This document shows, piece after piece, positions 26,676-26,930 of a stretch of DNA of 64,000 bases. Each line of letters opens with the position of its first letter. Within the stretch, counting starts at the first letter, position 1. The notes under the pieces are model-generated. The model saw nothing but the letters and a program-made list of their open reading frames with translations, searched no databases and was not told the origin of the DNA. This stretch comes from Escherichia coli 042 (lineage in GTDB: Bacteria > Pseudomonadota > Gammaproteobacteria > Enterobacterales > Enterobacteriaceae), in the NCBI RefSeq assembly GCF_000027125.1, contig NC_017626.1. One strand, given 5' to 3'. A program made the position numbers and the translations under genes.

Positions 26676-26930
26676 TTAAAGCTGACCAAGAGGCTTTCTT
26701 AATTTAGTAATATCTCTCTTAGGTGGCTCTCCAAATATCCGCGAATATTCCCGACTGAAATGAGATAAGCTTTCGTAACCGACAGCATAGGCTGCAGTGG
26801 TGACATCGTAATGTTCATTCAGCATCAGTCGCCTGGCTTCACTGAGGCGTAGCCATTTCTGATACCGGAGTGGACTCATTCCCGCAAGCTGTCTGAAGTG
26901 TTGATGGAAAGAGGGTGTGTTCATTTGCAC
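26676..26930 (-). pseudogene. yneL: Remnant of an AraC-family regulator: C-terminal HTH domain only
   Basis: 84-aa ORF (GTG start) carrying only the AraC-type HTH (…LSHFSREYSRIFGEPP…); no N-terminal domain ORF lies upstream. Confidence 0.7.

Follow-up and report, generated by a model that had tools for sequence, protein, structure and literature searches.

The 84-aa open reading frame (ORF) at 26676..26930, on the minus strand of the 64,000-nucleotide stretch of Escherichia coli 042 DNA analysed here (hereafter the window), is the already known and annotated pseudogene yneL (b1506). We consider it very probable that yneL is the dead remnant of a module consisting of a YqhC-like regulator and a hydrolase, which was located close to dif and was eroded by several deletions. 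This reconstruction of the origin of yneL is the sole modestly new element of the analysis.

The assignment to yneL is based both on location, between the F9 (yde) genes on one side and dif and hipA (upstream of the stub, 27212-28414) on the other, and on sequence identity to b1506. The equivalent segment of MG1655 is annotated as ‘pseudogene yneL, b1506’ and lies between ydeT and hipA. The window's pqqL shows 100% identity to several complete genomes, in keeping with E. coli. In every genome inspected, the PGAP label is that of a helix-turn-helix domain-containing protein, incomplete and missing its N-terminus (a 267-bp pseudogene). The literature describes yneL as a pseudogene with no function known (PMC9308461), and a recent preprint, which places dif within the yneL-hipA intergenic region, likewise gives it no reported function (10.1101/2025.09.02.673814).

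The ORF starts with GTG and encodes AraC sequence from helix 3 of the first helix-turn-helix (HTH1) through HTH2 and the C-terminal tail. It matches the AraC/XylS DNA-binding domain in Pfam, both as HTH_18 (E=4.9e-21, 75 bits against a cut-off of 33.6) and as HTH_AraC (5.6e-08, 33 bits against a cut-off of 26.6). It does not contain the complete bipartite domain, which has two HTH motifs, about 100 aa and both PF00165 repeats: PF00165 matches a single stretch of the ORF, residues 43-68, compared to two in the full-length protein, the first at 204-244. The ORF begins at about residue 220 of 304, so that the first repeat is cut, with loss of helix 1 and part of helix 2. Further upstream, an in-frame TGA in the translation (26952..26954, minus strand) closes the frame seven codons before the GTG. 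Searches with the stub, the full-length regulator and the hydrolase gave no NCBIfam equivalog above cut-off, and the scores of the stub were far below it.

A protein homologue search gave only proteins of 160 aa or fewer, and the full-length relatives were recovered from DNA. A DNA search with a Klebsiella relative as query showed that 93 E. coli genomes encode a full-length AraC family transcriptional regulator of 304 aa. It contains AraC_N (PF06719, E=1.1e-44) and HTH_18, and is 31% identical to YqhC over 255 aa (E=6e-39). DNA for the N-terminal domain is present in only 94 of 5426 E. coli genomes, always in a separate, island-borne copy: in 87 genomes this is in the tRNA-Arg (argW)/intS island, and in seven it is in an island with two integrases just upstream of yneL. 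A genome scan identified further full-length genes, with ORFs of 309-318 aa, in Citrobacter youngae, Enterobacter vonholyi, Enterobacter sp. MGH 24, E. mori and Klebsiella michiganensis. Overall the full-length relatives are 304-318 aa long and have AraC_N and HTH domains. The single genome scan gave no match in other Escherichia species; because it used exact peptide words, and did not pick up an E. coli representative either, this is weak evidence for absence from E. albertii, E. fergusonii and the cryptic clades. Four Klebsiella assemblies (L004-L007) are riddled with frameshifts, which makes their gene calls unreliable, and they were used for DNA comparison only.

The sequence-only reading of this DNA had described the ORF as a regulator cut down to its C-terminal AraC HTH, with a GTG start and with no ORF for an N-terminal domain upstream. 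Both descriptions are correct. When the 304-aa relative is used as a tblastn query, only residues 217-303 match, at 26942-26682 (87% aa identity, E=1e-52), and DNA homology to it (85%) stops at about 26942-26945. The full extent of homology to the AraC_N-family regulator in tblastn and blastn is 26676..26942 (minus strand), that is codons 217-304 and the stop. Upstream DNA (26975-27211) aligned to the N-terminal coding region with a score of 10, compared to 11.5 ± 1.7 for shuffled sequence, and with the full-length protein as query the N-terminal domain was absent from the whole 64-kb window by tblastn. Neither the ORF nor the DNA upstream of it, nor any other part of the window, contains the AraC_N domain (PF06719). 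Judged by its homology, the stub is derived from the AraC_N or YqhC-like subfamily, yet is no member of it as a protein. Given that the N-terminal DNA is missing from the window, the gene cannot be restored by correcting a sequencing error, as the same reading had considered; the same truncated pseudogene occurs in K-12 and in other genomes.

By eye, the frame upstream of the stub (…YRI-stop-AGWYAGLPFAASSLR-stop; GYRIGKAIDWLK…) could be read as decayed AraC sequence. This was rejected, because the alignment score is below the shuffle mean and because the segment at about 26945-27004 matches a hydrolase gene at 93%. Elsewhere in the window, an AraC-type HTH at 55414-55701 (plus strand), presumably marA from its map position, gives a weak tblastn match to the full-length regulator (23% identity, E=5e-05).

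The full-length relatives have a consistent set of neighbours. In all five of the loci L010-L014 the regulator is divergent from an α/β-hydrolase gene, the product of which is 91-98% identical to that of the E. coli island copy, and the intact divergent pair is also found in L008. In E. vonholyi (L011) an Fe-alcohol dehydrogenase (ADH) gene lies between regulator and hydrolase. Other genes of the module encode a DUF2255 protein (Pfam DUF2255 at L011 5962-6348) and a flavodoxin-like protein. The module is located near dif: an identical dif core is found in five other enterobacterial loci from Citrobacter, Enterobacter and Klebsiella, and it lies upstream on the regulator's strand at distances of 1.4 kb in Enterobacter sp. 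(L012), 2.5 kb in C. youngae (L010), 4.3 kb in E. vonholyi and 5.0 kb in Klebsiella (L006). Identity of the hydrolase between genera reaches 98% at the amino acid level. This is very high and shows that the intact module also moves horizontally, so that vertical ancestry of the stub is probable rather than proven.

The window has the same arrangement on a smaller scale. dif, the 28-bp XerC/XerD chromosome-dimer resolution site, is at 27107..27134 (minus strand), with the sequence AGTGCGCATAATGTATATTATGTTAAAT, which matches the consensus GGTGCGCATAATGTATATTATGTTAAAT at 27 of 28 positions. Sites of this kind have 11-bp arms for XerC and XerD on either side of a 6-bp core, and this is the only one in the 64-kb window, with no matches in 100 shuffles. 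dif is upstream of the stub, which begins 165 bp from it. The flank on the far side of dif (27135..27172, minus strand) can be aligned to Enterobacter and Citrobacter: 27172-27107 is 81% identical to L011 4915-4980, and the dif flank is 79% identical to that of C. youngae over 85 bp.

Between dif and yneL there are relics of two further genes of the module. The first is a 46-bp remnant of the start of a DUF2255 gene (27025..27070, plus strand), which is 91% identical to L011 6305-6349 and also matches the four Klebsiella assemblies. It retains an RBS-like AGGAG and an ATG at 27045, and encodes the N-terminus MFWNPEV, compared to MFWNYEV in E. vonholyi. The second is a 55-60 bp piece from the interior of the α/β-hydrolase gene (26950..27004, plus strand), which is 93-94% identical to L011 7259-7313 and L008 9875-9929. 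Identity is in the same range for L010, L014 and L004-7, and in the argW island of E. coli the matches fall within the gene annotated as α/β hydrolase. In the window these relics, of 55 bp and 46 bp, are all that remains of the divergent hydrolase/oxidoreductase partners.

A 127-aa ORF (27045-27428, plus strand) starts at the RBS and ATG of the DUF2255 relic and crosses dif into the antisense strand of hipA; it is almost certainly spurious.

Both relics are in their original order and orientation with respect to E. vonholyi, and are followed by window 26942-26674, which corresponds to L011 10001-10269 (regulator codon 217 to the stop, 86% identical in blastn). Measured against E. vonholyi, the minimum is three deletions, of about 1.3, 0.9 and 2.65 kb (total ~4.9 kb), which took the flavodoxin-like gene, most of the DUF2255 gene, nearly all of the hydrolase gene, the ADH gene and 216 codons of the regulator. 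Because the relics between yneL and dif are collinear, the lesion consists of at least three deletions, and is neither one truncation nor a sequencing error. A single truncation caused by insertion of hipBA was considered and rejected, since the junction with variable DNA is at dif (27107-27116) and not at the AraC breakpoint.

hipA is itself truncated in the window, and hipB is absent (27212-28479). Compared to K-12 there is a 1026-bp deletion with its junction at 28479/28480, which removes the first ~18 codons of hipA, all of hipB, the hipBA promoter and about 480 bp of the 3′ end of a yneO-like autotransporter gene. In O157:H7 NE92, hipA is also truncated at its N-terminus.

These comparisons suggest the following history. 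The ancestor of E. coli would have carried a small detoxification-type module beside dif, as is kept in Citrobacter, Enterobacter and Klebsiella, with the probable order dif, (flavodoxin-like/DUF2255), α/β-hydrolase, (Fe-ADH), and then a divergent, YqhC-like regulator of the AraC_N type. If YqhC and yqhD are a guide, this regulator presumably activated its divergent neighbours. The three or more deletions, amounting to about 4.9 kb if E. vonholyi is taken as the reference, would then have taken the target genes together with the first 216 codons of the regulator. What was left, still in its original order, would be the dif flank, 46 bp of the DUF2255 start, 55 bp from within the hydrolase, and the last 88 codons of the regulator.

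An alignment of eleven E. coli alleles shows that the erosion took two different routes. Class I, in which homology to the regulator begins at codon 217, comprises the window, WB61, Z1323HEC0067, JNE25-003, SWHEFF_68 and O157:H7. 118UI and Yu5, further class I strains whose F9 operon is intact, match 26883-27009 at 100%. Class II comprises K-12, AR_452, O152:H23 and E. coli C. It shares the dif side with class I up to window position 27010, and then has a piece of about 80 bp from the 3′ end of the hydrolase and its downstream flank (matching L011 6747-6828 and L008 9442-9519), after which AraC homology resumes at about codon 236, with a 1-bp deletion that causes a frameshift. Each class keeps module DNA that is absent from the other, and therefore neither is derived from the other and both go back to a longer common ancestor. 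In junction-specific searches class I was found in 815 and class II in 3048 of the 5426 genomes. Any match to the gene was found in 4245 of them, implying that the stub is absent in about 22%; the ST131 strain MNCRE44, for example, has no counterpart of window ~26641-27097.

Smaller changes have accumulated close to the start of the ORF. The 8-bp sequence GCCAGCCT is directly repeated at 26938-26945 and 26994-27001. A variant protein found in 87 contigs (P0002, with the sequence ...HTGYRLANRVQM...) is a 120-aa fused ORF, in which a spurious upstream ORF is joined to the HTH, and would fit a 56-bp deletion between these repeats. Two other database proteins (P0016 and P0018) read through different frames, indicating indels near the ORF start. 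At the other end of the gene, the 3′ tail of the window allele has seven substitutions in about 25 bp (26683-26706) which are unseen in the ten other aligned E. coli alleles: it encodes TKLRKPLGQL, where most of the ten have TRLRKSVGQL. This cluster may be a conversion patch.

The DNA on the dif side of yneL is variable in other strains, and the junctions of their inserted DNA fall at 27107-27116, within dif. SWHEFF_68 carries an island of about 12 kb within dif, between dif and yneL (L041 1-9897 and L042 19140-23001). The island contains two adjacent genes for tyrosine-type site-specific integrases, a 2.4-kb hypothetical gene, IS elements and a full-length AraC_N regulator that is 85.6% identical to yneL. 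Window 27107-27116 flanks it on both sides, and there is an intact dif on the far side. Islands of this type replace hipBA and are present in 7 of the 5426 genomes. Ecol_316 and JNE25-003 have a 7.7-kb oxidoreductase/LysR cluster that starts at window position 27113. JNE25-003 also has at least four tandem copies of a filamentous prophage next to dif (L043 9432-42001), with genes for a Zot-like protein, a replication endonuclease and a coat protein. Some copies are interrupted by ISEc31, and the copies are separated by dif-like sites (AGTGCGCATAATGTGTTACACGTTATGT), in which the XerC arm is nearly perfect and the XerD arm degenerate.

Orphan 3′ ends of the same gene are found outside E. coli. 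In K. pneumoniae ATCC 13883 (L015 9555-10258) a single clean deletion of 5.28 kb, running from 430 bp past dif to about codon 222, has reduced the gene to an 82-aa ORF with the HTH only, a case parallel to yneL but independent of it. E. vonholyi has, in addition to its intact gene, a 114-bp 3′ fragment 1.9 kb downstream of it (L011 12109-12222). The fragment is 82% identical to the window yneL, the similarity extending past the stop codon, which suggests that a newer module has displaced an older layer. No pseudo-dif with eight or fewer mismatches was found beside it.

The traffic at dif provides a case for a different origin, in which the stub is a displaced 3′ duplicate left by a mobile element that integrated into the 3′ end of an AraC gene, or the old layer of repeated Xer-mediated replacement of modules at dif. 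There is a precedent, in that icdC was created by integration of e14. The island in the seven genomes places a full-length paralogue and two integrase genes directly upstream of yneL, is inserted within dif and has 27107-27116 on both sides; the oxidoreductase cluster and the tandem filamentous prophages enter at the same point in other strains; and E. vonholyi has both a full-length gene and an orphan 3′ fragment further downstream. The details nevertheless do not fit. The island regulator, at only 85.6% identity, is not the parent of yneL; the full-length gene lies directly beside the stub and not at the other end of the element; internal deletions within a resident module, and not duplication of an att site, account for the collinear relics of hydrolase and DUF2255; and there is no dif-like site beside the E. 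vonholyi orphan fragment. On these grounds the icdC-like att-duplication model was rejected, and this origin as a whole is very improbable.

A wider reading of the same observations is that the few kilobases flanking dif in Enterobacteriaceae are a zone of recurrent cargo turnover, in which modules arrive and older copies are whittled away by deletions. We put this forward only tentatively. Detoxification-type modules with an AraC_N regulator would reach dif by insertions that are either Xer/IMEX-like or integrase-borne. An orphan 3′ stub of this one gene may have arisen at least four separate times, with endpoints at codons 217 and ~236 in E. coli, ~222 in K. pneumoniae ATCC 13883 and ~271 in E. 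vonholyi. Three of these endpoints lie within 57 nt of a 915-nt gene, which by a rough calculation would have a probability of ~0.01 if endpoints were uniform. Clustering in the last third of the gene might reflect a constraint at the level of DNA or a recombination preference; clustering in its 3′ part could hint at selection to keep the 3′ end.

This last point bears on whether the 84-aa product could be a functional, stand-alone HTH mini-regulator of the MarA/SoxS type, kept by selection. The ORF is open in the class I alleles examined; pN/pS between them is below 1 (0.47-0.69 over 68 shared codons); a similar piece has been left by truncations that occurred independently in E. coli and K. 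pneumoniae; and yneL has been reported from microarray compilations to be transcribed and regulated (PMC9308461). The pN/pS values come from only 8-18 differences, a number at which weak constraint cannot be separated statistically, and these small counts fit relaxed constraint. Several close pairs of class I alleles differ by nonsynonymous changes only, and conserved residues of HTH2 are substituted, for example SHFSREY to SHFCREY or SHFRREY. The ORF starts at about residue 220 of 304 and so is without helix 1 and part of helix 2, the first PF00165 repeat being cut. Reading of the window sequence shows no Shine-Dalgarno-like sequence before the GTG. Promoter-like matches in the region number six, compared to 2.6 ± 1.5 expected, which is unremarkable, and none is placed to serve the 84-aa ORF except one that overlaps dif. 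The majority allele, in 3048 genomes, starts later and is frameshifted, and the stub is missing altogether from about 22% of genomes. We therefore regard a functional mini-regulator as very improbable. Given the partial HTH1, the lack of a Shine-Dalgarno sequence, the frameshift in the commonest allele and the frequent absence, the stub most likely does nothing, and control of F9 by H-NS and temperature is most likely independent of it.

The F9 (yde) chaperone-usher operon lies downstream of the stub on the same strand (19881-26290), and is intact in the window, with six genes coding for the adhesin and two minor subunits (together ydeQRS), an 883-aa usher, the chaperone and the major subunit. 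K-12 has lost the genes for the major subunit and the chaperone, as well as half of the usher gene. The transcription start of f9 has been mapped 251 nt upstream of the ATG of the major subunit, with a -10 element CATAAT and a -35 element TAGTCG, and f9 is repressed by H-NS (PMC3966885). Reckoned from the major-subunit ATG at 26242, the start is at about 26493 in the window. Both promoter elements are intact (26493..26529, minus strand; -10 at 26500-26505, -35 at 26524-26529) and lie 147 bp downstream of the yneL stop.

The sequence-only reading had raised the possibility that the stub is what remains of a dedicated AraC-type regulator of F9, the loss of which would have changed control of the fimbriae. 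Fimbrial operons regulated by AraC-family proteins do occur, and the stub is co-directional with F9 and about 180 bp upstream of its transcription start. The context of the relatives points elsewhere. Full-length relatives of the stub have AraC_N, like YqhC, and are located beside hydrolase genes, with or without Fe-ADH, and dif; no fimbrial genes were found beside them in loci L010-L014, and linkage of orthologues to fimbrial operons is thus not seen. In the window it is relics of the partner genes, hydrolase and DUF2255, that flank the stub. In C. youngae the regulator is followed directly by a homologue of yddW (79% to the window ORF at 559-1878), with no F9 block, so that the 25-kb gad/ydd/yde/F9 block of E. 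coli separates genes that are neighbours in Citrobacter. The 5′ flank of f9 is described as variable, with hypothetical regulators for which there is no evidence of a link to f9 control, H-NS being the repressor (PMC3966885). The relatives' context, the relics and the published work together leave the idea of a lost dedicated F9 regulator unsupported, and we consider it extremely improbable.

It is concluded that fimbrial biology is little affected by these findings: the stub is an annotated pseudogene, F9 keeps its own H-NS-controlled promoter, and the fragment is not to be taken for a regulator that F9 has lost. It very probably descends from a YqhC-like protein that regulated a hydrolase/ADH module close to dif. 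The locus preserves, in compact and datable form, the stepwise erosion of genes beside dif: E. coli has two remnant alleles that are independent of each other, and K. pneumoniae a truncation that parallels them. Such a record could be of use for studies of deletion bias or of IMEX traffic at the replication terminus.

The stub can be compared to several known systems. MarA and SoxS are, like the yneL ORF, short proteins made up of AraC HTH sequence only, but they keep all seven helices of the bipartite AraC domain, whereas the yneL ORF is without helix 1 and part of helix 2. YqhC, the AraC_N-type activator of yqhD/dkgA in the aldehyde response, resembles the full-length relatives of the stub in having AraC_N and two HTH motifs, and the E. 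vonholyi relative is also divergently paired with an Fe-alcohol dehydrogenase. It is however a paralogue and not an orthologue of these relatives, whose partners are an α/β-hydrolase, with or without ADH, near dif, and it differs from the stub itself, which lacks any N-terminal domain.

The closest intact genes are that for WP_000622442.1, in the argW/intS island, and its counterparts in Citrobacter, Enterobacter and Klebsiella. They resemble yneL over residues 217-303 (87% aa and 85% nt identity), and the hydrolase and DUF2255 genes that neighbour them match the relics in the window. They differ in being intact and, in E. coli, in being located elsewhere (87 genomes at argW and seven in the dif-inserted island), and their divergence from yneL is too great for yneL to have come from them recently. 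Finally, K-12 yneL (b1506) is the same AraC C-terminal remnant at the same locus and on the same strand, and the 200 bp downstream align base for base with the window. It is a class II allele, starting at about codon 236 and frameshifted, whereas the window has a class I allele that starts at codon 217 with its frame intact; K-12 has a different hydrolase relic upstream, and its F9 operon is partly deleted.
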